From the NCBI GenBank assembly GCA_038214135.1, contig JBBQSD010000016.1:460-64459 (forward strand): a DNA stretch of 64,000 nt. Reading direction: 5' to 3'. Within the stretch, counting starts at the first letter, position 1. The number at the start of each line of letters is the position of its first letter. Origin of the DNA: Chloroflexales bacterium (GTDB lineage: Bacteria; Chloroflexota; Chloroflexia; Chloroflexales; Roseiflexaceae). The position numbers were made by a program, and so were the translations under genes. Below the pieces are notes generated by a model. The model saw only the letters and a list, made by a program, of their open reading frames with translations. It was not told where the DNA came from and made no database searches. Positions 8,835 to 46,034 of the stretch are shown here, one piece after another.

Positions 8835-8960
8835 GTCAGGAGTCAGGAGATTCTTTGCCGACACGGTCTTGTAGTTCCGCAGTTCCGCAGTTCCGTGGTT
8901 CTGGTTGGAATTCTAGCTTCTGACTCCTGAATCCTGAATACTTGGTTCTTGGTTCTCGCA
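8835..8960 (+). repeat. STRR-like heptamer inverted-arm element plus conserved ~60-nt core
   Basis: Left arm GTCAGGAGTCAGGAGATTC and right arm TTCTGACTCCTGAATCCTGAATACTTGGTTCTTGGTTCTCG. The core AGGAGATTCTTTGCCGACACGGTC..GTAGTTCCGCAGTTCCG is shared with the 12375 and 13181 loci. Confidence 0.85.
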
Positions 8961-12366: not shown

Positions 12367-12374
12367 GCCGAGCA

Positions 12375-12543
12375 GTCAGGAGTCAGGAGTCAGGAGATTC
12401 TTTGTCGACATGGTCGGTAGTTTCGTAGTTCCGTAGTTTTCGATCCTTCCCTCACCCCTGCTGCGCCGCCCCTCCCCCTTTGGGTGTGGGGCCGGGGGTG
12501 AGGGCGGGTTCCGCTATTCTGACTCCTGAATACTGACTCCTGT
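12375..12543 (+). repeat. STRR-like heptamer inverted-arm element enclosing a GC-rich hairpin
   Basis: (CAGGAGT)x3 left arm, ATTCTGACTCCTGAATACTGACTCCTG right arm, and an inner hairpin CCCTCACCCC...GGGGTGAGGG at 12449-12504. Confidence 0.85.
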
Positions 12544-13180: not shown

Positions 13181-13378
13181 GAGTCAGGAGATTCCTTTCC
13201 ACCATGATTCTGTAGTTCCGCAGTTCTCAGTTTGCGGTTTTTCTCTTGTCCGCAGATGACGCAGATGACACAGATTATGCGTTCGGTAGTTCTTGGTTCT
13301 CGGTTCTCGCTTCGTAATTCTGACTTCTGACTCCTGACTCCTGAATACTTGGTTCTCGGTTCTAACTTCTGAATACAA
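13181..13378 (+). repeat. STRR-like heptamer inverted-arm element with low-complexity centre
   Basis: GAGTCAGGAGATTCCTTTCC...GTAGTTCCGCAGTTC core. The right arm is AATTCTGACTTCTGACTCCTGACTCCTGAATACTTGGTTCTCGGTTC (13316-13362). Confidence 0.85.
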
Positions 13379-17119: not shown

Positions 17120-17210
17120 GTATTCAGAAGTCAGGAGTCAGGAGCCAGAATGCCGAACTCACCCCTGCTGCGCTTGCCCACTCCCAATGAGAGCGGGCCA
17201 GAGATGAGGG
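17120..17210. repeat. single heptamer arm plus GC-rich hairpin element
   Basis: GTATTCAGAAGTCAGGAGTCAGGAGCCAGAATG, then CTCACCCCTGCTGCGCTTGCCCACTCCC...GGGCCAGAGATGAGGG. The second part is related to 12449-12504. Confidence 0.75.
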
Positions 17211-23123: not shown

Positions 23124-23230
23124 GAACCAAGTATTCAGGAGTCAGGAGTCAGAATTCAGAATGGGTCACACTACCAGCTTCTTGCGTGCAATCGACGGAA
23201 CCCTTCTCCTGACTCCTGACTCCTGACTCA
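23124..23230. repeat. STRR-like heptamer inverted-arm element
   Basis: GAACCAAGTATTCAGGAGTCAGGAGTCAGAATTCAGAATG ... TTCTCCTGACTCCTGACTCCTGACTCA. It fills the pheA-leuA spacer. Confidence 0.9.
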
Positions 23231-24918: not shown

Positions 24919-24984
24919 ACTCAGGAGTCAGGAGTCAGAAATCAGAATGACAACTGCTGACTTCCGACTCCTGACTCCTGAATA
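24919..24984. repeat. STRR-like heptamer inverted-arm element
   Basis: TCAGGAGTCAGGAGTCAG (24921-38) ... CTGACTTCCGACTCCTGACTCCTGA (24957-81). It fills the leuA-ilvC spacer. Confidence 0.9.
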
Positions 24985-34249: not shown

Positions 34250-34355
34250 CCAAGTATTCAGGAGTTAGGAGTCAGGAGTCAGAATACGAGAACGAGCTGA
34301 GAACCAAGCATTCAGGAGTCAGGAGTCTGAATATGGGAACGAGCTGAGAACCAAG
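34250..34355 (+). repeat. tandem duplication of a 47-54-bp heptamer-containing unit
   Basis: CCAAGYATTCAGGAGT(TAGGAGT)CAGGAGTCWGAATAYGRGAACGAGCTGAGAA occurs twice (34250-34303 and 34304-34350), followed by a partial third start. Confidence 0.9.
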
Positions 34356-35767: not shown

Positions 35768-38461
35768 GTGAAGCGATGGACGATAGTTCGGTGTCTTATA
35801 ACTTGTTTTGTAATGGTTCTGATACCACTAGCAAGTCTGACAATCCCCAACGCCCAGGCGCAAACCGGATCACCAAATACATTTACATATAATATTCAGC
35901 CGGGTAATTCGCAATCGCAGAATTTTACTATTCAAAATACGACTGGTGTTACCAAGAACTATACTGCCAGCGCGGTGCTTCCGGGGTCGTTTCCAGCAAC
36001 CCAAATTACCGTAACTGTCTCCCCATCGACACTGCCACAGCTTGCAGCGAATGCATCGACAACGATAAGCACACAGGTGAATGTCGCAGCTGGAACACCA
36101 TTTGGCACCTATGGCTTTTCAATTGCCGTCAACGATGGCACGACAACCAGTACTGTGGTCAATGCCAGTGTTGTTGTCTCTGCACCGACCGCAACGACCG
36201 TCCCAACCTATTCATTAACACCAACCAGCCAGACAATCAGCGCTCCGGCTGGAGGGTCGTCGGTTTCATCAAGCCCGCTGACGCTTACGTCAACAGGGAT
36301 CGGTGTGCAGACGTACACAATCAGCACGAATATTGCCAGTTTCCCTGGTTGGAGTGCCGTCATTCTGCCGAACACAACCCTCCAGATCAATGGTGGTTCA
36401 AGTTCAAATATTACAATTCAGATTACCGCACCAGCGGCTGCAACAACACCAATCGTTCTACAGGTAACCGCCACTCGCCAGAGTGATGGGGCGAATGTCT
36501 CTGCGATTATCAATGTCAATGTGACCGCTGCAACATTAACGCCAACCCTTACCTCAACACTCACACCAACAACAGGCCCAGTTTGCCCAGAGGGTAATCG
36601 TGATCCAGGGAATGATCAGGGAAATGCAAGACTTATTCTTGTTGATACACCCAACAATTATGGCATCTGCTACCAGGGCGATGAGGATTGGTTCAAATTC
36701 GGCGGAATCGGCGGCAAGGTCTATACCATTGATATCACCCGTTTCGATGCTGGCATCGATCTGGTGATTGAACTCTATGATGAGAATGGCGTACGCCTGG
36801 CCGCCAATGATGATTTCTTCGCCCGTACCCCAGCGCCGACGGCCGCTGCCGTTCAGACTCCGCTGCCGACTCGCGATATTGCGCCACGAATCCAATCCTG
36901 GCGTGCGCCAAAGGATGGCATCTACTATCTGCGGGTTCGTGATGCGGCAGGAATTGGTGGCAGTAACAAGACCTATACGCTGGTGGTCTTTTCGGAGAGC
37001 TATGGCCCAACGCCAATAACCGTCTCCGAGATTTGCCGTGATCTGTTTGAAGAGGATGGCCTGCCCGAAGAGGCCAAGCTGATCACATCAAATGAGATCC
37101 AACCAAGCCATCGGCTCTGCCCAGTCGGTGATGCCGATTGGGTGAAGTTCTTTGGTAAAGCTGGCAAAACATACTATATCTACACCGACACGCGCCCGTA
37201 CCGGAATAATCCAGCAGCGAATCCCTCAACCAACGAATCCGAGGCTGGCGCGGATACCCAATTGTATCTGGTAGATCGCGATGGCCTGACGGTTCTCGAT
37301 TTCAATGATGATATTAATGGGCCAGATGGCAGTTCGCTGGACTCGCAGATCCGTTTTGTGCCAAGAGTCGATGGCTTCTATTTCGCACAGGTCAAGAATG
37401 CTGGCGATATTGGCAATCAGTTTATTCGCTATGATCTCGTGCTAACACAATGCGCTCCTGGCAAGGATGATTGTGGCCGCGCCAAGGTGGCAACGACGAT
37501 TGTTGCAACACCAATACCTGCAATCACGCAGACACCCATTTCATTCAATCCAACACCAACTCCTGTTGTTGTCACCGCTACTCCGATCACACTCACACCA
37601 ACGATCAACGCATTTCTGGAACAAACCCAGCGTTCCGGCCTGCTGAATGGCCCATTGATCGGTTTTGCCGATCCAACATTTGGGCAAGTCTGGCAGCGAA
37701 CAGATCGTCCTATCGCACAGGGACGCGCAACCCGCAGTTGGATGTGGGGGCCGCGTGGCCTCATGGCTCGCTCAGAGGGTTATGTTCAAGCGGATGGCGG
37801 CCTGCGGCAGGTACAATACTTCGATAAAGGCCGCATGGAGGTGGGTAATCCAGGCGGTGATCGAACAAGCCCATGGTTCGTCACCAGTGGCCTGTTGGCG
37901 ACCGAGCTTGTGACTGGGCGCATGCAGGTTGGTGATAGCGATTTTGTTCAACGCAGCCCAGCCGATATTCCAATTGCTGGTGATCTCAATAGCGCAACTG
38001 GGCCAACCTATGCCAGCTTCGCAGGTGTAGTTGGCGTGCAAGCTGGAGATCGAAGCGGGAGCTTACCGCTCGACATGATCGACCGCAGTGGGCAAATGAG
38101 TCGCTACAGCGGTTCGGAACAAGCTAACACGCGGTTCACACACTTCGTCTCAGAGACAGGCCATAATATTCCGGGCATCTTCTGGCGCTACCTGAATGCC
38201 AATGGCCCGATCGATGAGGGTGGGCAGGTACGTAACGGCCAGCTGATGAACTGGGTGTTTACGATGGGCTATCCGATCAGCGAGCCATTCTGGGCACGTG
38301 TACAGGTTGGCGGCAGTGAGCGCATAGTGCTTGTTCAGATCTTCCAACGGAGAGTGCTCACCTTCGATCCAGCAAATGCCAGCGCATGGCAGGTCGAAAT
38401 GGGCAATGTCGGGCGTCATTATTACCGCTGGCGTTATGGCGAAGATCTGCCGGTATCGTAG
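35768..38461 (+). CDS. large secreted protein with Ig-like/Thr-rich N-terminal region, two PPC (pre-peptidase C-terminal)-like domains and an unknown C-terminal domain
   Basis: GTG start with signal peptide [34 protein letters not shown]-like motifs are [13 protein letters not shown] and [15 protein letters not shown] linkers are present. Confidence 0.6.
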
Positions 38462-38760: not shown

Positions 38761-39921
38761 ATGCAATCACACGATCATAGCCCAATCCGCGCCCGTGACG
38801 ATGATGAGGATCAGCCAGGCCCGTATTTGCGTCGCTTGCGTGATGTCCCGCAGGATACCGTTCATCGCCTCGATGAGGAGATCGGGCGACGCCCTGCAAC
38901 ATCATTGGGTGAGGCGCGGGCAGCTGCCTACCTCGATGGACGATTGCGGCGGGCGGGACTACGAGCATCGGCGGATACGTTTACGGCACGCCCAGGGCCT
39001 GGCTGGGAGGGGATGCTTGGTGGCGGGCTCATGCTGCTGGCCCTGCTGCTGTACTATTGGCAACCTCTTATCGCAGTGCTGCTACAGGCAATCACGCTGG
39101 GCCTTGCGGCGGCAGCTGTGATCCAGCGTGGCACACCACTGATTGAGCGAAAACGGCCAAGCCAGAATGTGATTGCCACGCGTGCCGCATCCGATCAGCG
39201 GCATCATCGTTTGGTACTCCTGGCTGCGCTCGATACACCAGCCCTACCGAGGCGAATTTCCATGCTGCTTGGTGGCGCTGCCATGCCAATGGTGCGTGCG
39301 ATTGCAGCCCTGGCTGCTCTTGGATTTGGGATGATCGGCCTGTTCGACCCACAACGACTCTGGTTTTACCTGCAATTTTTGCCAGCACTGTACCTGATTG
39401 TTGCCGCAACCCTTGATGCACTTGGGAAGCATGGATTCTGGGCACCTCAAGCAGCTGATTCGGCGGGGTTGGCCGTTCTGCTGGCCAGTTGCGAGGCATT
39501 GGACGAACTGCTGCATACCGAGCTATGGGCGATTGGGCTGGGAGCATCCACATCGCGGGCTGGCCTTGCGGATGTGCTGCGACGCTACCCCTTCGATCCA
39601 GCAACAACCCTGTTTATTGGCCTAGAAGGGCTCGGCAATGGCGAGCCCGTGTTTCTGACCCACGATGGCTGGCCGGGCCGCCAGGCTGATCCACAGATCC
39701 TGGGAATCGCAACCCAGGCCGCTGCCGATGCGCGCATCGCGATTCCTGCGCTCATTGCCACGCGCCAGGCAACCATTGCAGCCTCCCTGATGCACGAAGG
39801 CCGCCGAGCCATGACCATTGCCTGCCTTGGGCCGGGGGCATCTACTCCCACAAGCGCAGAGGCATTGGAGCGTGCCACTCGCCTGGTGATTGCAATAGCG
39901 CGGGCAGTCGATACTGTCTAA
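38761..39921 (+). CDS. membrane protein with degenerate M28-peptidase-like domain
   Basis: M28-like blocks are present (GEARAAAYLDGRLRRAGL, NVIATRA..LVLLAALDTP, ADSAGLAVLL), but the metal ligands appear replaced (AALD for HxD; AST for EE). Hydrophobic segments are inserted. Confidence 0.45.
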   Translation: MQSHDHSPIRARDDDEDQPGPYLRRLRDVPQDTVHRLDEEIGRRPATSLGEARAAAYLDGRLRRAGLRASADTFTARPGPGWEGMLGGGLMLLALLLYYWQPLIAVLLQAITLGLAAAAVIQRGTPLIERKRPSQNVIATRAASDQRHHRLVLLAALDTPALPRRISMLLGGAAMPMVRAIAALAALGFGMIGLFDPQRLWFYLQFLPALYLIVAATLDALGKHGFWAPQAADSAGLAVLLASCEALDELLHTELWAIGLGASTSRAGLADVLRRYPFDPATTLFIGLEGLGNGEPVFLTHDGWPGRQADPQILGIATQAAADARIAIPALIATRQATIAASLMHEGRRAMTIACLGPGASTPTSAEALERATRLVIAIARAVDTV

Positions 39922-41060
39922 TCCAGGTGAACCGTGGGTATGCCCTCCATGGTTTCGCGGATGAGGCTATCCACAACTGCCTTGAGATCATTTGTTTCTG
40001 CAAAAACCTTCAACTGCCGATCCGCGCTACTGCCATTGTCACACATTTTGAGTAGATACTCGACTTCGTGGCGGCTGCCAAGATCATCAACAACATCATC
40101 GACGAGCGCCACAATTTCGTGAACCAGTGCCTTGGCATCGACTTCCTGGCGCTTGCCGAGATCGAGTAGCTTGCCATCCAGGCCATAGCGTTGGGCACGC
40201 CACTTGTTCTCCATGATCAGCGCCCGCCGATAGACACGGAATGTCGTATTCTCCTCGAACATCTGATGGAACTTGACCACGATTGCCTGCATTGTTGCAG
40301 CCAGCGCCATACACTCATCGATGCGGGTTGCAATATCGCAGACGCGAAACTCAAGCGTCCCGAAACTTGGGTGCGGGCGCAGATCCCACCAGATCTTCTT
40401 GCCATTATCGATACTCTTGGTGTTGATCAGCAAATTCACATAGGCATGAAATTCTGATGCCGAATGGAACGATGGCGGAATACCAGTTCGTGGGAAATTC
40501 GCAAAGATCGATGCACGATACGATTTGAAGCCGGTATTGCGGCCCATCCAGAATGGCGAAGAACTGGAAAGCGCCAATAGATGCGGCAAAAGATAGCGAG
40601 CCACATTCATCATTTCAATCGCAACATCATCATTGGGCATCCCAACATGCACATGCATGCCAAAGATCAGTAGCTGTAGCGCAAGCTGCTGCATCTCTTC
40701 AACCACACCTTTGTAGCGATCAAATGGCGTAATCTCCTGGTTCATCCACGATGATATCGGGTGCGTGCCAGCAGCAACGATCTTGTAGCCATGAATATTC
40801 GCCAATGCCGCTATCGTCCCACGCAGACGAATAACCTCGGCTCGCGCTTCAGCAACCGTTCGACACGGCACCGTGCCAACCTCAACGATACTCTGGTGCA
40901 GTTCAGGCTTGATCTGCTCACGCAGGATCATCTGGCCCTTTTCGAGAATCTGCGTAATATACGAACGTAATTCACGCGTCTCGGGATCAACAACCTGGTA
41001 CTCTTCTTCAATCCCGATTGTGAAGGGGAAATCGGGTGCCATCGGGTTCGTGTAGTTCAT
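39918..41060 (-). CDS. carboxylate-amine ligase, YbdK/GCS2 family
   Basis: FTIGIEEEYQVVDPETREL N-terminus and a GCS2 layout. 380 aa. ATG 41060 lies 3 nt after the upstream stop, with a GAGGTGA SD. Confidence 0.85.
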   Translation of the reverse strand: MNYTNPMAPDFPFTIGIEEEYQVVDPETRELRSYITQILEKGQMILREQIKPELHQSIVEVGTVPCRTVAEARAEVIRLRGTIAALANIHGYKIVAAGTHPISSWMNQEITPFDRYKGVVEEMQQLALQLLIFGMHVHVGMPNDDVAIEMMNVARYLLPHLLALSSSSPFWMGRNTGFKSYRASIFANFPRTGIPPSFHSASEFHAYVNLLINTKSIDNGKKIWWDLRPHPSFGTLEFRVCDIATRIDECMALAATMQAIVVKFHQMFEENTTFRVYRRALIMENKWRAQRYGLDGKLLDLGKRQEVDAKALVHEIVALVDDVVDDLGSRHEVEYLLKMCDNGSSADRQLKVFAETNDLKAVVDSLIRETMEGIPTVHLD

Positions 41061-41063
41061 GCA

Positions 41064-42434
41064 TCACCTCTTCGGTTCAACAACAAAAACCGGGACTGTC
41101 GAGCCACCACCTGCCGTGACATTCAGCAGTGTGACCGTCGAGAGCCGCGATAAACAACCCTGAACCTGATTTCCAAACATAAATGGATCACAATCGACAA
41201 GCCGTCGGCCAATCTGGACCTGCCCATCAATCAGCGCCGGATAGTCCTCATAGGCGATTTCGACTCGTTCCTGGATCACAAAGGGACTCTGCAGCGCTTC
41301 CGCAAGCGCAGCATCCCATGCATCGGCTGGTGTCTCCCAACCGACCACAATGCCCTTACCGCCATATTCATCATTCGGCTTGAGCAGTAATCGTTCCTGA
41401 TTGCGGCGAGCAAACTCGATCAGATCGATTCCACTGCCCTGATAGGTTGTCGCACCAGTTCGCACGATCCGTGTCCAGGGAACGTGCCGTTCAATTGCGG
41501 ATTGCTGTTCTGGTGTAAAAAAATGCCGATTGGCATCATCGGTCAACAGTGCGAAGATCGATTTCTTGTGCAGCAATTTGGCGCGGAACGAGTTGACCAT
41601 ACAGATCTTACCGGCGGCATAGGCCTGCATGAGTGGATGATCGAGCGCCTGATCGCCATAGTGAATCAGCAGTTCCGAGGTCAGCACACGCTTATACACA
41701 AGATCAATCGGAGTTTGGCTAGCATCCGCATTGCGGGCGAACAAACGGTTCTCAGCAAAACGCAGGTCATCTGGTGTACAGATAATTGCCATCACACCAT
41801 GCTCAGCGAAATAGCGCTGGAACAGCAGGAACTCGGAATGGGTTGGCAGGCCACTCCAATCAACAATCGCAATGATCGGCTCGCTGGTGCCACCAAACTC
41901 ATGCCATGCCGCCAGCAGAGCATTAAGCAGATACTGGCGGGCTGGCAGTGCTGTTGCCGTATAGCGCTGGCCAAAGGCGCGCATCACGGGTGTGTCGAGG
42001 AACACCTCAGAGAGCTGGTCCTCGTAGGCAATCGCCGCCGGGCTCTCGCCATTATATTCAACGAATTGGAGCGAACGGCCATCAACAGTCAGGAAGGTAT
42101 CCATGCGCGAATGAACACTCGGCTCGTGGTAGCCCGGATGCATCGCAATCAACGTTTCCTCAAGCGGCGTCAGCAGAAGGCCAGCGCGCAGTTCGGCATC
42201 CTGAAGCGCCGCATCAGCCAGCGCGCGGCAGGCCGCACCAACCAATCCACAAGCCGATTGTAGCAGAGCATACTGATCCGCGGAGATCAACCGTGGCCGC
42301 AGAACAGTCGTCAGCGGGCGATCACCAAAATAGAGATTGCGCTCACGCATCCCACTTGTTAATGCCGCCCATGTATCCTGGGCCGTCTCAGTATCAAGCA
42401 AACCGTGATAGTGATCGATGGCCTGTTGAAGCAT
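41064..42434 (-). CDS. ATP-grasp superfamily amidoligase (circularly permuted type-2 / GspS-like)
   Basis: LYFGDRPLTTVLRPRLIS, LQFVEYNGESPAAIAYE and a glycine-rich loop LLKPNDEYGGKGIVVG. The family assignment is from memory of PF14403-like proteins. Confidence 0.55.
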   Translation of the reverse strand: MLQQAIDHYHGLLDTETAQDTWAALTSGMRERNLYFGDRPLTTVLRPRLISADQYALLQSACGLVGAACRALADAALQDAELRAGLLLTPLEETLIAMHPGYHEPSVHSRMDTFLTVDGRSLQFVEYNGESPAAIAYEDQLSEVFLDTPVMRAFGQRYTATALPARQYLLNALLAAWHEFGGTSEPIIAIVDWSGLPTHSEFLLFQRYFAEHGVMAIICTPDDLRFAENRLFARNADASQTPIDLVYKRVLTSELLIHYGDQALDHPLMQAYAAGKICMVNSFRAKLLHKKSIFALLTDDANRHFFTPEQQSAIERHVPWTRIVRTGATTYQGSGIDLIEFARRNQERLLLKPNDEYGGKGIVVGWETPADAWDAALAEALQSPFVIQERVEIAYEDYPALIDGQVQIGRRLVDCDPFMFGNQVQGCLSRLSTVTLLNVTAGGGSTVPVFVVEPKR

Positions 42435-42646
42435 AGAGATTCCTTATACATTATGGATACCACTGTGCGTGGCAGGCACCAGGAGCATTCCCTTGACCAT
42501 GGCGACTGCTGTTTCGTGGGAACCGTTCCGTCAACGCCCAGAGGGCACCCGCCACACCCTCCAACCGGCCAGGCGCTACGCCCTGGACCCGTACTAGATG
42601 TTCTTGGCTCGCCATTGTTGTGTAGTCATGCCTCGGCTGCGATCAA
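42435..42646 (-). other. ~212-nt GC-rich leader element, copy E2
   Basis: The minus strand begins TTGATCGCAGCCGAGGCAT (42646-42628). It has loose similarity to E1 afterwards (GCCA.AA..CAT.T.G..GGG..AGG..TGGCCGG). Confidence 0.35.
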
Positions 42647-42690
42647 GATATGATGCTGGCTGGTTTGGGCGAACACAAGGTTCACCCTAT

Positions 42691-42727
42691 CTCGGTTCGG
42701 TATTCTGACTCCTGACTCCTGGATACT
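42691..42727. repeat. single STRR-like heptamer arm
   Basis: CTCGGTTCGGTATTCTGACTCCTGACTCCTGGATACT. It abuts the stop codon of the ATP-grasp gene. Confidence 0.85.
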
Positions 42728-43668
42728 CAAGATGCATTCAGCAGCTTCGTCCACAGCATGCCCTCATACTGAATCGGCCTCTGGTTGGCCTTCTCAATCG
42801 CCAGATCGGCCATCGCGCTGACTGCCCAGTTAAAAAACCGTGCTTTGAGCGAATAGTAATCCATATCGGGAGCCGGGTTGGTGAAATCGATTGCGTAGGG
42901 GATACCATCACGCAGCGCAAACTCACATGTGTTCATGTCGTAGCCAAGTGCCGTTGTGATCTTGAGTGCATCGCTGACAATCCGATCATGCTCTTCAGGT
43001 GTGAAGAACCCTGGCTCATCGAAGTAGCGATTCGGATAGGGCTGGCTGACATCGAATTTCATCACCAGCACCTTCTCATGGCCAATCACGAAGCAACGGG
43101 CATATTTCTGCCAATCGATGAATTCCTGGAGCATCATACACTCGGTGCCCGTCTGATCATAGGCACGCCAGAGTTCGCTCATGGAATTCAATTTGAAAAC
43201 ATTCTTGAACCCGCCGCCCGCCGATGGCTTGAGGATAACCGGGAAGCCGCCAACATGCGCAAGATGCTCTTCCCATGGAATACGATCCTTCAGGTTCCGC
43301 AGTGATTCGGGATGCACGATACCCTCGATATACGAATGTGATGGCAGTGCTATCGATTTCGGGTGGGCCACGCCGATCTTGGCACAGATCGTCGCACCAA
43401 CGAATTTATCATCGGCACTCCACCAGAATGGATTATTGATCACATAGGTTCCACCGAGCATGGCTGTTTTTAGAAACGTGCGGTAGTATGGCACCTCATG
43501 CGAGATTCTATCGATAATCACAGCATACTCGGGTGCCTCGGCCATGTATGTGCCGCTGAGCTGAACGAATTCGGCTACCACACCGGCATTGCGGCGATTC
43601 ACTTCCTCAATGAATGCCTGCGGCCAGGTATTCTCACGACCAACCATAATGCCAATCTTCTTGGTCAT
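42727..43668 (-). CDS. ATP-grasp domain protein (RimK-like fold)
   Basis: Glycine-rich loop ILKPSAGGGFKNV. 313 aa. SD AAGGAG is present. Confidence 0.7.
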   Translation of the reverse strand: MTKKIGIMVGRENTWPQAFIEEVNRRNAGVVAEFVQLSGTYMAEAPEYAVIIDRISHEVPYYRTFLKTAMLGGTYVINNPFWWSADDKFVGATICAKIGVAHPKSIALPSHSYIEGIVHPESLRNLKDRIPWEEHLAHVGGFPVILKPSAGGGFKNVFKLNSMSELWRAYDQTGTECMMLQEFIDWQKYARCFVIGHEKVLVMKFDVSQPYPNRYFDEPGFFTPEEHDRIVSDALKITTALGYDMNTCEFALRDGIPYAIDFTNPAPDMDYYSLKARFFNWAVSAMADLAIEKANQRPIQYEGMLWTKLLNAS

Positions 43669-43722
43669 ATACTGCTCCTTAAGGGTATATTTCCGTCAGG
43701 GCGCATCTGACGGGCTTGTACG

Positions 43723-43740
43723 GGCGCGATATATCGCGCC
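43723..43740. repeat. palindrome GGCGCGATATATCGCGCC
   Basis: A perfect 18-bp palindrome flanked by GTACG..., like the GGGCGGTTCGCGAACCGCCC family. A second hairpin, CGTCAG-GGCGCAT-CTGACG, lies at 43695-43713. Confidence 0.7.
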
Positions 43741-43778
43741 ACTGCGGATCTCGATCTTTTATATGAGCCATGAGGCTA

Positions 43779-44462
43779 CTAACCAATATGTTCCCTGAAA
43801 AAGGCTAACGTGCGCTGCCAGGAATCGCCAGCGGCGGCGGCATCATAATTGGAGCCATGATCATTCATAAAGGAATGTTTTGCACCATCATAGATCTTTA
43901 TATCGTGGGGGATGGCATATTCACCCAGCGTTGTATCGAGTTTGCGGCCTGCGCCTGTCGTGAAATCACCAGTTGGGTAGGAGCCGACCACCGGGCAGAG
44001 CCGCCGAACTGCCTCAAGCGGACGTGGGTTCATGCCATAGTATGGTGCAATCGCCTTCAGCCGCTGATCGGTGCAGGCCCAGGCAATCGCAAACCCGCCA
44101 CCCATACAATAGCCAACCGCACCAACCCGCTTTGGGTCAACTTCAGGCCGCGCCGAAAGCCAATCCAGCGACGCTTTGAGATCGTGAATACCGCCATTAT
44201 CGGTCGAATTGAAGATCATGCCACCAAAGAACCGAAGCATGCAGATCGCCCGATTGCGATTGGCAAACAGATCGACCGAGAGCGTCACATAGCCCTGTTC
44301 GGCATAACGGCGGGCAATATCCTGCATGTTCTCATTCAGCCCAAACACTTCGTGAATAGCGATCAGCGCCGGGTGTGGGCCAGGGCCATCGGGCAAGGCT
44401 AGGTAGCCTGCCAACGTTTCGCTACCCGAGCGGAAGGTGATCGATTCGGTTTGAACAGGCAT
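43779..44462 (-). CDS. dienelactone hydrolase family protein
   Basis: GYCMGG nucleophile motif and GAKHSF His. I set the start to ATG 44462 (MPVQTESITF), which has AAGGGA upstream. ATG 44489 is an alternative. Confidence 0.8.
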   Translation of the reverse strand: MPVQTESITFRSGSETLAGYLALPDGPGPHPALIAIHEVFGLNENMQDIARRYAEQGYVTLSVDLFANRNRAICMLRFFGGMIFNSTDNGGIHDLKASLDWLSARPEVDPKRVGAVGYCMGGGFAIAWACTDQRLKAIAPYYGMNPRPLEAVRRLCPVVGSYPTGDFTTGAGRKLDTTLGEYAIPHDIKIYDGAKHSFMNDHGSNYDAAAAGDSWQRTLAFFREHIG

Positions 44463-44498
44463 TCGGCGGCTTCCCTTCACATGAACCACGGCATTATG

Positions 44499-45218
44499 TT
44501 AATTCGCACCATTGATATACAACTGGATCATTCTATGCCAGTATGGCCAATCGTGTGCCCAGCCATCCCATAATCGCAGTGCATGCCAGATCCCTTTTGA
44601 CCACAGCGCATCCGAGAGTTGGGTATTGGTGTTCGCCGCCGTATCATCACGGCCAATCGCCATAATAATTTCGAGCCGTTTGAGTTGATCGAGCTGGTGG
44701 CCTGCTTGAAGGCTCTGGATCATGGCGATTGGGTGGTGATAGTGGACTTCCTCATCATAATAGCCCTCCAGGAAGCGCGTCGTATCGTACAGGCCGGCGA
44801 AGGCCAGCACCCGATTGAAACGATCTGGGTGGCGCAGACCAAACAACATGGCATGAATGGCACCAAATGAGCAGCCATGCAGCATGGTGAACTGGTTCGC
44901 ATTCTGGGAGCGGATCAGCGGCAGCACCTCATTGAGCACATAGCGCTCATATTGATCATGGCGGTACAATCGTTCGCGGGGATGCATCGATTTCGCATAC
45001 CAACTCTCGGCATCGACGCTATCGAGGCAATAGAGTTGAACCCAACCCTGTTCGATCTGCTGCGACAATGCGCCGACCATGCCACGGTCTTCATATTCAA
45101 AAAAGCGGCCCTTCGATGTCGGGAAGACGATCACCGGCGCGCCAGCATGGCCAAAGACAAGCAATTCCATTGGCCGGTTCAGCGCGGGGCTGTGCCACTG
45201 ATGGTAGGAGCGGTGCAT
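44499..45218 (-). CDS. esterase family protein (alpha/beta hydrolase, PF00756-like)
   Basis: MHRSYHQWHSPALNRPMELLVFGHAGAPVIVFPTS and GxSxG (GCSFGA). I set the start to ATG 45218. The upstream ATGs at 45254 and 45323 would overlap the divergent gene. Confidence 0.75.
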   Translation of the reverse strand: MHRSYHQWHSPALNRPMELLVFGHAGAPVIVFPTSKGRFFEYEDRGMVGALSQQIEQGWVQLYCLDSVDAESWYAKSMHPRERLYRHDQYERYVLNEVLPLIRSQNANQFTMLHGCSFGAIHAMLFGLRHPDRFNRVLAFAGLYDTTRFLEGYYDEEVHYHHPIAMIQSLQAGHQLDQLKRLEIIMAIGRDDTAANTNTQLSDALWSKGIWHALRLWDGWAHDWPYWHRMIQLYINGAN

Positions 45219-45353
45219 ATGCGCCGTTTCTGTATAATGCAAAGAATGAAGCATCGCAATGATACTGTGTAGCGCTACACCTGTCAAAATAATGCAACCA
45301 GAATGATCCAGCAAACGTATCATGCTACAGATAGACGAAAGGTAGCATCAGCT

Positions 45354-46034
45354 ATGCAAACGACATTCACAACATGCCAGAGCTGTGGCGGCGAAAGCCC
45401 CAGCAACGCACAATATTGTATTGAATGCGGCGAATCGCTGGCATTGGCGATTGGCCCAACAACCAAACTGGCCTCACCAACCTGCCCAAGTTGCGGATCG
45501 GAGAACCCTGTTGATGGGCAATTCTGTGCGATCTGTGGCCGCAGCATGCCGAATGTGAATACCGTTGGGCAGGCGTGGGTGCCACCCCAATCGATGCCAC
45601 AGGCACGCTTGCGTCCACAACCAGCATCAATACCGAGTGTACGGCCAAACCGTATTCCGGTGATACCGCCTGCTGCAATTCCGCCACCTGTACCGCCGAT
45701 CCCACCACAACAGAGTTACCCACGCCCGATGACAGCCCAACGCCAGTATCATCCTGTTCGGCGGCGTGGCATCGGCCCAGCCGGGATTGTGCTCATCTTC
45801 GGCATGGCTGCATTATTCTTGATGAAACTGATGAGTTGGCCGCTGTTTTTACTCGTTGGCGCAGCCGCCTTTCTGGTCTATCAGGCCGAACGTGGCCGCC
45901 TGAACCAGAGCCTGCGCATGGTTATTATGGCAGGAGCCGGCCTATTCGTGATGAGTAACCCACGCATGTGGCCGATTATGCTGGTGGCATTTGTGGTGAT
46001 GAAACTTCTAGGGGGCAATCGGCGGATTTGGTAG
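45354..46034 (+). CDS. double zinc-ribbon protein with Pro-rich linker and C-terminal TM segments
   Basis: CQSCGG..CIECG and CPSCGS..CAICG motifs. I set the start to ATG 45354 (MQTTFTTC). Confidence 0.7.
   Translation: MQTTFTTCQSCGGESPSNAQYCIECGESLALAIGPTTKLASPTCPSCGSENPVDGQFCAICGRSMPNVNTVGQAWVPPQSMPQARLRPQPASIPSVRPNRIPVIPPAAIPPPVPPIPPQQSYPRPMTAQRQYHPVRRRGIGPAGIVLIFGMAALFLMKLMSWPLFLLVGAAAFLVYQAERGRLNQSLRMVIMAGAGLFVMSNPRMWPIMLVAFVVMKLLGGNRRIW

Follow-up and report, generated by a model that had tools for sequence, protein, structure and literature searches.

The minus-strand gene cluster between positions 39918 and 45218 of a 64,000-nucleotide (nt) stretch of DNA from a Chloroflexales bacterium of the Roseiflexaceae (contig JBBQSD010000016.1), the whole of which is here called the window, contains a conserved unit of four genes that encode an esterase, two ATP-grasp ligases (one classical, the next circularly permuted) and a GCS2-type carboxylate-amine ligase, in fixed order and with short gaps. 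We hold, with somewhat more belief than doubt, that this cassette carries out the stepwise assembly of a small peptide-like (gamma-glutamyl) metabolite, independently of the ribosome and of nonribosomal peptide synthetases (NRPS), through three ATP-dependent ligations. In the genome of the window, the ancestral compact operon is interrupted by a dienelactone hydrolase (DLH) gene and by a 292-nt noncoding insert, both of which had been counted as parts of the system in a preliminary description of the cluster.

The open reading frame (ORF) list gives five co-directional ORFs on the minus strand, all at the positions of the preliminary description, and they cover 39918 to 45323 if the longest esterase ORF is taken. 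The first gene of the cassette, for a PF00756-type cytoplasmic alpha/beta hydrolase of 239 amino acids (aa) resembling esterase D and ferulate esterases, lies at 44499 to 45218 and is followed by the DLH gene (43779 to 44489; 236 aa), which falls outside the conserved cassette. A spacer of 110 nt (43669 to 43778) separates DLH from the classical ATP-grasp amide ligase (42727 to 43668; 313 aa), and the 292-nt spacer (42435 to 42726) separates this gene in turn from the permuted ATP-grasp ligase (41064 to 42434; 456 aa; PF14403, CP_ATPgrasp_2). The YbdK/GCS2-type ligase (39918 to 41060; 380 aa) starts 3 nt further on, with a GAGG ribosome binding site (RBS) that overlaps the TGA stop codon of the permuted ligase. 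This junction was reproduced from the sequence as it had been described before, and so was the distance from the esterase stop codon to the DLH start, which is 9 nt for a GTG at 44489 or 36 nt for an ATG at 44462. The ATG at 44462, which has GAAGGGAAG upstream, is the likely start judging by the sequence.

The conservation of the unit was assessed in 11 genome loci, 80 loci from metagenomes that were retrieved by a profile of Chloroflexota and Acidobacteriota sequences and 10 contigs reached via individual proteins (numbered L001 to L101). The permuted ligases of the metagenome loci are 43 to 69% identical to that of the window, and the G+C content over the loci is 45 to 73%. Partners were counted from the phmmer envelope coordinates of relatives of the window proteins, in loci whose flanks were long enough. 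The ATP-grasp gene accompanied the permuted ligase most constantly and was found directly upstream of it in 53 of 67 loci; GCS2 was directly downstream in 44 of 63 loci with room for it (5 of them with two copies), the esterase was upstream in 41 of 63 (34 on the same strand), and all four genes were present in 26 of the 47 loci that had room on both sides. The gaps between the permuted ligase and GCS2 were mostly between -12 and +40 nt. Named carriers belong to the Roseiflexaceae, the Herpetosiphonaceae (L014), the Anaerolineae (L097), the Longimicrobiaceae (L098) and the Gemmatimonadaceae (L099), and since the outer flanks differ among the last four and a Chloroflexota-like contig (L015), the four-gene order is not passive synteny. 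The preliminary description had made its reading depend on the neighborhood being kept in other genomes, and the order is indeed kept across phyla.

Reduced architectures were also found. Some Chloroflexales have the ATP-grasp and the permuted ligase as a pair (L003, L016, and L019 to L022), and in Pyrinomonadaceae and other Acidobacteriota (L004 to L008 and L010) the permuted ligase stands alone amid housekeeping genes. In a sub-clade of five loci (L025, L028, L031, L033, and L062), two GCS2 paralogues stand in tandem after the permuted ligase, and the ATP-grasp and esterase genes are usually missing.

The three ligases belong to three distinct ATP-dependent amide-ligase folds, as had been proposed, and this was confirmed by domain matches and fold models. 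The 456-aa protein passed the gathering score of PF14403 with 34.5 bits, where 32 are needed, and that of PF04174 with 27 bits, where 23.1 are needed, and its homologues bear the same precomputed Pfam labels. The only solved structures reached by sequence were 3n6x, annotated as a "putative glutathionylspermidine synthase" (2.7e-4, or 1.5e-8 with a profile), and YjfC (0.02). The AlphaFold2 model, built on an alignment of 31 homologues, was of high confidence (pLDDT 92, pTM 0.91), and its best Foldseek matches were the eukaryotic glutathione synthetases 8fbz, 2hgs (human) and 5oes, with E values of about 1e-17 and TM scores of 0.69 to 0.70 over the whole chain. Next came homoglutathione synthetase 3kal, 3n6x, YjfC, YgiC, the fungal ligase Cp1B (9cjn), GspS (2io8) and trypanothione synthetase, so that all fold matches are small-molecule ligases that join a carboxylate to an amine. 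The protein had been called a circularly permuted ATP-grasp enzyme related to GspS, and both the Pfam and the fold matches bear this out. The identity to the glutathione synthetases is 14 to 16%, and neither Pfam, NCBIfam nor the sequence and profile searches of the PDB gave a glutathione synthetase match.

The permuted ligase is a member of a large family, with 3546 clusters at 50% identity for an E value of at most 1e-3 and 513 for at most 1e-30, and it is strongly conserved across the families of the Chloroflexales (65 to 88% identity). From Chloroflexota to Acidobacteriota, the residues E126, N128, E130, S131, P132, H289, K290 and K291 are invariant, as are K352 to D355 (KPND), Y357, G358, G359, G361 and G442 to G444, and the sole low-confidence loop of the model (436 to 442) overlaps the NVTAGGGS stretch at residues 438 to 445. 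The spacing of E126, N128, K290/K291, K352, G358-G359 and the flexible loop 436 to 445 would correspond to that of E144, N146, K305 and K364 and of the G-loop and A-loop in human glutathione synthetase.

The 313-aa protein has no Pfam match and falls outside all curated families: it scored 37.9 bits against TIGR00768 (RimK), where the cut-off is 143.4, and 24.6 bits against the LysX family of NCBIfam, where it is 276, and the match to Ddl was likewise weak and below its cut-off. Its AlphaFold2 model (pLDDT 86) has a classical ATP-grasp fold, with Ddl (3r5x), RimK (7qys; TM score 0.69), LysX (3vpd; LysX/ArgX), MdnB and macrocyclases of ribosomally synthesized and posttranslationally modified peptides (RiPPs) as the top Foldseek matches (TM scores of 0.63 to 0.69 for RimK, LysX/ArgX and Ddl), and the sequence contains a KPxxGGG nucleotide-binding motif matching the RimK/LysX/Ddl type. 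Many orthologues (for example, P0128, P0211, P0224, and P0234) are 380 to 450 aa long and have an extra helix-hairpin-helix (HhH) domain (PF14520), which in the orthologue at L016:6552-7850 is C-terminal, at residues 357 to 398. In the loci that were looked up, the HhH-bearing ATP-grasp goes with the pair-only architecture, which has neither esterase nor GCS2.

The third ligase, GCS2, matches PF04107 over its full length (1.6e-61, 208.7 bits) and exceeds the cut-offs of the NCBIfam equivalog NF010039, "carboxylate-amine ligase" (548 bits against 371), and of TIGR02050 (287 against 176), and it is below the cut-offs of all glutamate-cysteine ligase equivalogs of NCBIfam, the nearest being NF010043 (379 against 409) and the rest well below. 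Its relatives in the PDB are the YbdK structures 1r8g and 1tt4. The GhExE motif, defined as the signature of carboxylate-amine ligases (PMC2588565), is present as GIEEE at residues 16 to 20. Enzymes of the GCS2 type convert a carboxylate, as a rule the gamma-carboxylate of glutamate, into an acyl phosphate, which they then couple with an amine (PMC2588565).

The esterase matches PF00756 at 3.8e-13, and its best PDB match by sequence is the ferulic acid esterase 7xrt (1.1e-5). The alignment with 7xrt spans GCSFG (GLSMG in 7xrt), GRDD and AHDW, motifs that can be read as holding the Ser, Asp and His of a catalytic triad. A further hydrolase is found outside the Chloroflexales. In L097, L098 and L099, a fifth co-directional gene directly downstream of the cassette encodes a Peptidase_C26 protein (PF07722; 1.9e-58 for a representative), that is, an amidase of the gamma-glutamyl-hydrolase or class-I glutamine-amidotransferase type. 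A C26 gene lay no more than 6 kb away in 22 loci of the large clade outside the Chloroflexales versus none of the 17 loci in the Chloroflexales clade. Also recurring as accessories are another GCS2, another PF00756 esterase and an additional ATP-grasp like L-amino-acid ligases. Genes of the PD40, Tricorn-N and S9-peptidase types were seen near the cassette in several loci of Gemmatimonadota and Anaerolineae (L097:772-2842, L099:12722-13471 and L065:9982-11916).

Two elements that the preliminary description had included do not belong to the unit. It had regarded the DLH protein as a partner of the ligases. DLH is a clear member of PF01738 (1.6e-47, 162 bits, profile positions 1 to 216 of 217) with the Cys nucleophile motif GYCMGG and the PDB relatives 4zv9, 3f67 and 1din, and it was rejected as a component of the system, as no homologue was found in L001 to L101, some 100 related loci that include the nearest relative with flanks (L100). 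In L017, the place between the esterase and the ATP-grasp gene is taken by an AMP-binding acyl-CoA synthetase (L017:3048-4796), and the slot seems to tolerate insertions. The absence of DLH from the related loci and the presence of an unrelated gene at the same place in L017 argue that DLH is a lineage-specific insertion in a permissive slot. In L012, an AMP-binding gene was observed upstream of the cluster.

The second element is the spacer between the ATP-grasp gene and the permuted ligase, which had been described as a 290-nt leader. In L100, whose ligases are 78 to 85% identical to those of the window, the ATP-grasp gene follows 40 nt after the esterase, the permuted ligase 15 nt after the ATP-grasp gene and GCS2 3 nt after the permuted ligase, with neither DLH nor the 292-nt spacer, and the median of the corresponding gap over all loci is 71 nt. 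No Rfam family matched in the whole window at gathering thresholds, the interval 42380 to 43800 gave nothing except noise at E values up to 5, and the spacer folds no better than shuffled sequence (z-score -0.21). A structured leader or riboswitch was therefore rejected, and by comparison of the sequences the spacer is an insert specific to the lineage of the window.

The absence of a convincing precursor gene, which had been noted in the single sequence, was borne out over dozens of loci. When 1576 small ORFs from the cassette loci were clustered, no conserved precursor ORF was found, and the recurring clusters were either off-frame or antisense shadows of C26 or the esterase or were limited to four near-identical genomes. 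The 54-codon ORF at 42451 to 42615 was rejected as a precursor; it lies wholly inside the nonconserved spacer. Across the cassette loci, no precursor peptide gene stood beside the ligase, as would be expected for a graspetide or microviridin (ATP-grasp RiPP), and the recurring neighbors included no Pup-like small protein, proteasome or depupylase gene.

From these observations, we infer a pathway in which GCS2/YbdK would activate a carboxylate, with the gamma-carboxylate of glutamate as the most likely one, and join it to an amine or amino acid to give a gamma-glutamyl amide. The permuted ATP-grasp enzyme would then phosphorylate the free carboxylate of this product and add a further amino acid or amine, and the classical ATP-grasp enzyme would either add one residue more or make an incoming dipeptide. 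The esterase, and C26 likewise in other phyla, may hydrolyze, edit or recycle the product, and the tight spacing in most loci is consistent with co-transcription. In support of such a scheme, linked ATP-grasp and COOH-NH2 ligases have been described as enzymes of successive peptide ligations (PMC4431377). The frequent partnership with C26 points to a gamma-glutamyl amide bond in the product, and the lack of a recurring exporter together with the high conservation of the proteins suggests that the product is intracellular and of housekeeping type (a thiol, an osmolyte or the tail of a cofactor, for example) and not a secreted antibiotic. Of the interpretation put forward in the preliminary description, the ligase folds, the conservation and the missing precursor stand, and the DLH partner and the leader fall away.

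Several points weigh against a dedicated biosynthetic operon. The window has no C26, and no second esterase, extra ligase or S9 peptidase was found there either. The DLH gene, the palindrome-bearing spacer that follows it and the 292-nt spacer could break co-transcription in the window, and the searches for RNA runs containing the region returned DNA metagenomes only (microbial mat and sediment). The pair-only and solitary architectures imply that the enzymes can act outside the full cassette. To our knowledge, the substrates of YbdK-type GCS2 enzymes are generally unproven, and the pair of GCS2 and C26 also fits a catabolism based on gamma-glutamylation.

In such a catabolic or salvage route, GCS2 would gamma-glutamylate an amine or a peptide fragment in the manner of PuuA/PuuD, Ipu or aniline degradation, C26 or the esterase would remove the glutamyl group, and the ATP-grasp enzymes would serve to recycle amino acids or peptides. 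We regard this as unlikely: a gamma-glutamyl ligase with a Peptidase_C26 is an established signature of Puu-type pathways, and S9, PD40 or Tricorn-like peptidase genes do lie near the cassette in L097, L099 and L065, but two additional ATP-consuming ligases would be unusual in such a route, no oxidoreductase, aminotransferase or transporter recurs, and C26 is missing from all examined loci of the Chloroflexales, including the window. Joint function of any kind would be denied if the genes were unrelated and adjacent through inherited synteny, and this is very hard to credit. The outer flanks are also syntenic within the Roseiflexaceae (L012 and L017), and DLH itself shows that unrelated genes can enter the cluster, but the retention of the order next to other flanks in Herpetosiphonaceae, Anaerolineae and Gemmatimonadota, at 43 to 50% identity and with nearly touching or overlapping genes, largely refutes it.

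The preliminary description had offered a metabolite and a tag on a protein terminus side by side. In a tagging system, the terminus or a side chain of a protein encoded elsewhere would receive amino acids from the ligases, as with RimK or PafA, and the hydrolases would remove the tag. The closeness of the 313-aa model to RimK, LysX/ArgX and RiPP macrocyclases speaks for this, as does the kinship of GCS2 with the Pup ligase PafA, whose closest relative it is (PMC2588565), and the HhH extension of some orthologues could be a macromolecule-binding module. However, dozens of loci showed neither a conserved small ORF nor a carrier of the LysW or Pup type within or next to the cassette, genes for the proteasome, ribosomal proteins or carriers do not recur in the neighborhood, and the permuted ligase resembles small-molecule ligases only. 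We therefore consider tagging quite improbable, and it is the missing small ORF and the small-molecule-ligase fold of the 456-aa enzyme that lead us to favor a metabolite.

A system of this kind has been catalogued before. PF14403 was reportedly defined from the 2009 survey of amidoligases that Iyer, Abhiman, Burroughs and Aravind published in Mol Biosyst. This survey is reported to have predicted, in silico, a PF14403 system with RoseRS_2616 of Roseiflexus as the prototype and with a GCS2-like ligase, an alpha/beta-hydrolase, a glutamine-amidotransferase-type amidohydrolase and a peptidase of the M20 type as partners. The window shares with this system the PF14403 domain above the gathering score, the adjoining GCS2-like ligase, the alpha/beta-hydrolase and the affiliation with the Roseiflexaceae, and relatives outside the Chloroflexales have the amidohydrolase as C26; it differs by the DLH gene, the 292-nt insert and the lack of an amidohydrolase. 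If the survey did define the system in this way, the cassette of the window would be orthologous to the RoseRS_2616 prototype system, which has been catalogued in silico and is uncharacterized. An M20 peptidase was not among the recurring neighbors of the cassette, and the amidohydrolase and the M20 peptidase are accessory rather than universal partners. A search of the full-text literature found no experimental work on the PF14403/CP_ATPgrasp_2 family, in agreement with the earlier statement that such multi-ligase systems have no characterized product, and a search on low-molecular-weight thiols of Chloroflexi gave nothing useful. Our analysis defines the unit as four core genes with C26 as an optional fifth, takes DLH and the leader out of it, and adds the link to the fold of eukaryotic glutathione synthetase and the negative precursor search.

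Among characterized systems, the glutathione pathway is similar in that a ligase of the glutamate-cysteine ligase family adjoins a ligase with the fold of eukaryotic glutathione synthetase. It differs in that the window ligase is outside the Pfam glutathione synthetase families, that GCS2 is of the YbdK type with an unproven substrate, and that the cassette has a third ligase and an esterase as obligatory partners. GspS and trypanothione synthetase, YjfC, YgiC and the COG2308 protein 3n6x belong to the same permuted ATP-grasp clade as the 456-aa ligase. Enzymes of the GspS group conjugate a peptide carboxylate to an amine, and GspS has a hydrolase partner for the reverse reaction, but the likeness in fold is lower (TM scores of 0.56 to 0.63), and the 456-aa ligase has no CHAP amidase domain. 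The alpha-E, transglutaminase and Anbu partners of COG2308 systems are likewise absent. For RimK, LysX/ArgX and Ddl, the 313-aa protein is alike in fold only, and no substrate gene of the RpsF or LysW type is nearby.

A comparison can also be made with the biosynthesis of the fungal pseudopeptide E-64, where Cp1B (TM score of 0.68 to the permuted ligase) ligates epoxysuccinate, a dicarboxylic acid, to an L-amino acid with formation of ADP (PMC12568646). Successive stand-alone amide-forming enzymes make a short pseudopeptide there independently of NRPS (PMC12568646). The differences are that this pathway is eukaryotic, that its epoxysuccinate warhead comes from an Fe/2-oxoglutarate oxygenase, that the second amide is formed by Cp1D and that no GCS2 partner is present.

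The remaining features of the locus concern its regulation and surroundings. The longest esterase ORF extends to an alternative ATG at 45323, and a sigma-70-like promoter candidate on the minus strand at 45259 to 45287 (TTGACA-17-TATCAT, an 11/12 match), which sits downstream of 45323, lies about 40 nt 5' of the ATG at 45218. The latter start is favored, since the esterase orthologues of L012, L014, L015, L097 and L100 are all 239 aa long and since the promoter candidate is placed at 45287 to 45259; this site is a candidate only, because the total of promoter-like sites in the region is not above that of shuffled sequences. The 110-nt spacer between DLH and the ATP-grasp gene contains a perfect 18-nt palindrome (GGCGCGATATATCGCGCC; 43723 to 43740, minus strand) that occurs once in the window, followed by a second short hairpin (CCGTCAG...CCTGACGG) and an AAGGAG RBS ahead of the ATP-grasp ATG. 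The spacer is not a canonical terminator, as it has no T-run, and the palindrome could be an operator or an insertion scar.

The 292-nt spacer opens with a copy, at 42707 to 42719, of the tandem heptamer (GGAGTCA)n. This heptamer is dispersed through the window, with 16 matches at no more than one mismatch against 0.01 expected, and the other copies are at 8922, 12372 to 12391, 13322 to 13341, 17127 to 17146, 23138 to 23230, 24924 to 24978 and 34261 to 34327. Opposed copies (23138 with 23211 and 24924 with 24966) could form hairpins, and the family looks like a repeat of this genome akin to the cyanobacterial short tandemly repeated sequences (STRR).

The cluster is flanked by genes for an 897-aa secreted repeat protein (35768 to 38461) and a 386-aa membrane protein with no Pfam match (38761 to 39921) on one side and for a 243-aa double-zinc-ribbon membrane protein (45303 to 46034) on the other. 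These three genes are syntenic with the cassette only inside the Roseiflexaceae (L012 and L017) and are for this reason probably unrelated to it.

Three stand-alone ligases and dedicated hydrolases point to a defined small molecule, one that probably matters to abundant bacteria of soil, sediment and microbial mats. As a more specific and still tentative possibility, which we put at low probability, the cassette may be the pathway for an undescribed gamma-glutamyl tri- or tetrapeptide, possibly a glutathione-like thiol or an amide conjugate, with a housekeeping role in Chloroflexota, Gemmatimonadota and allied soil and mat bacteria. If this were true, a bacterial enzyme that shares the fold of eukaryotic glutathione synthetase would catalyze the second step, and this would bear on the origin of the eukaryotic enzyme. 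The pairing of GCS2 with a ligase of that fold gives a concrete and directly testable hypothesis, and identification of the product would help to complete the picture of core metabolism in phyla that have been little studied and provide a new NRPS-independent peptide route for biocatalysis.

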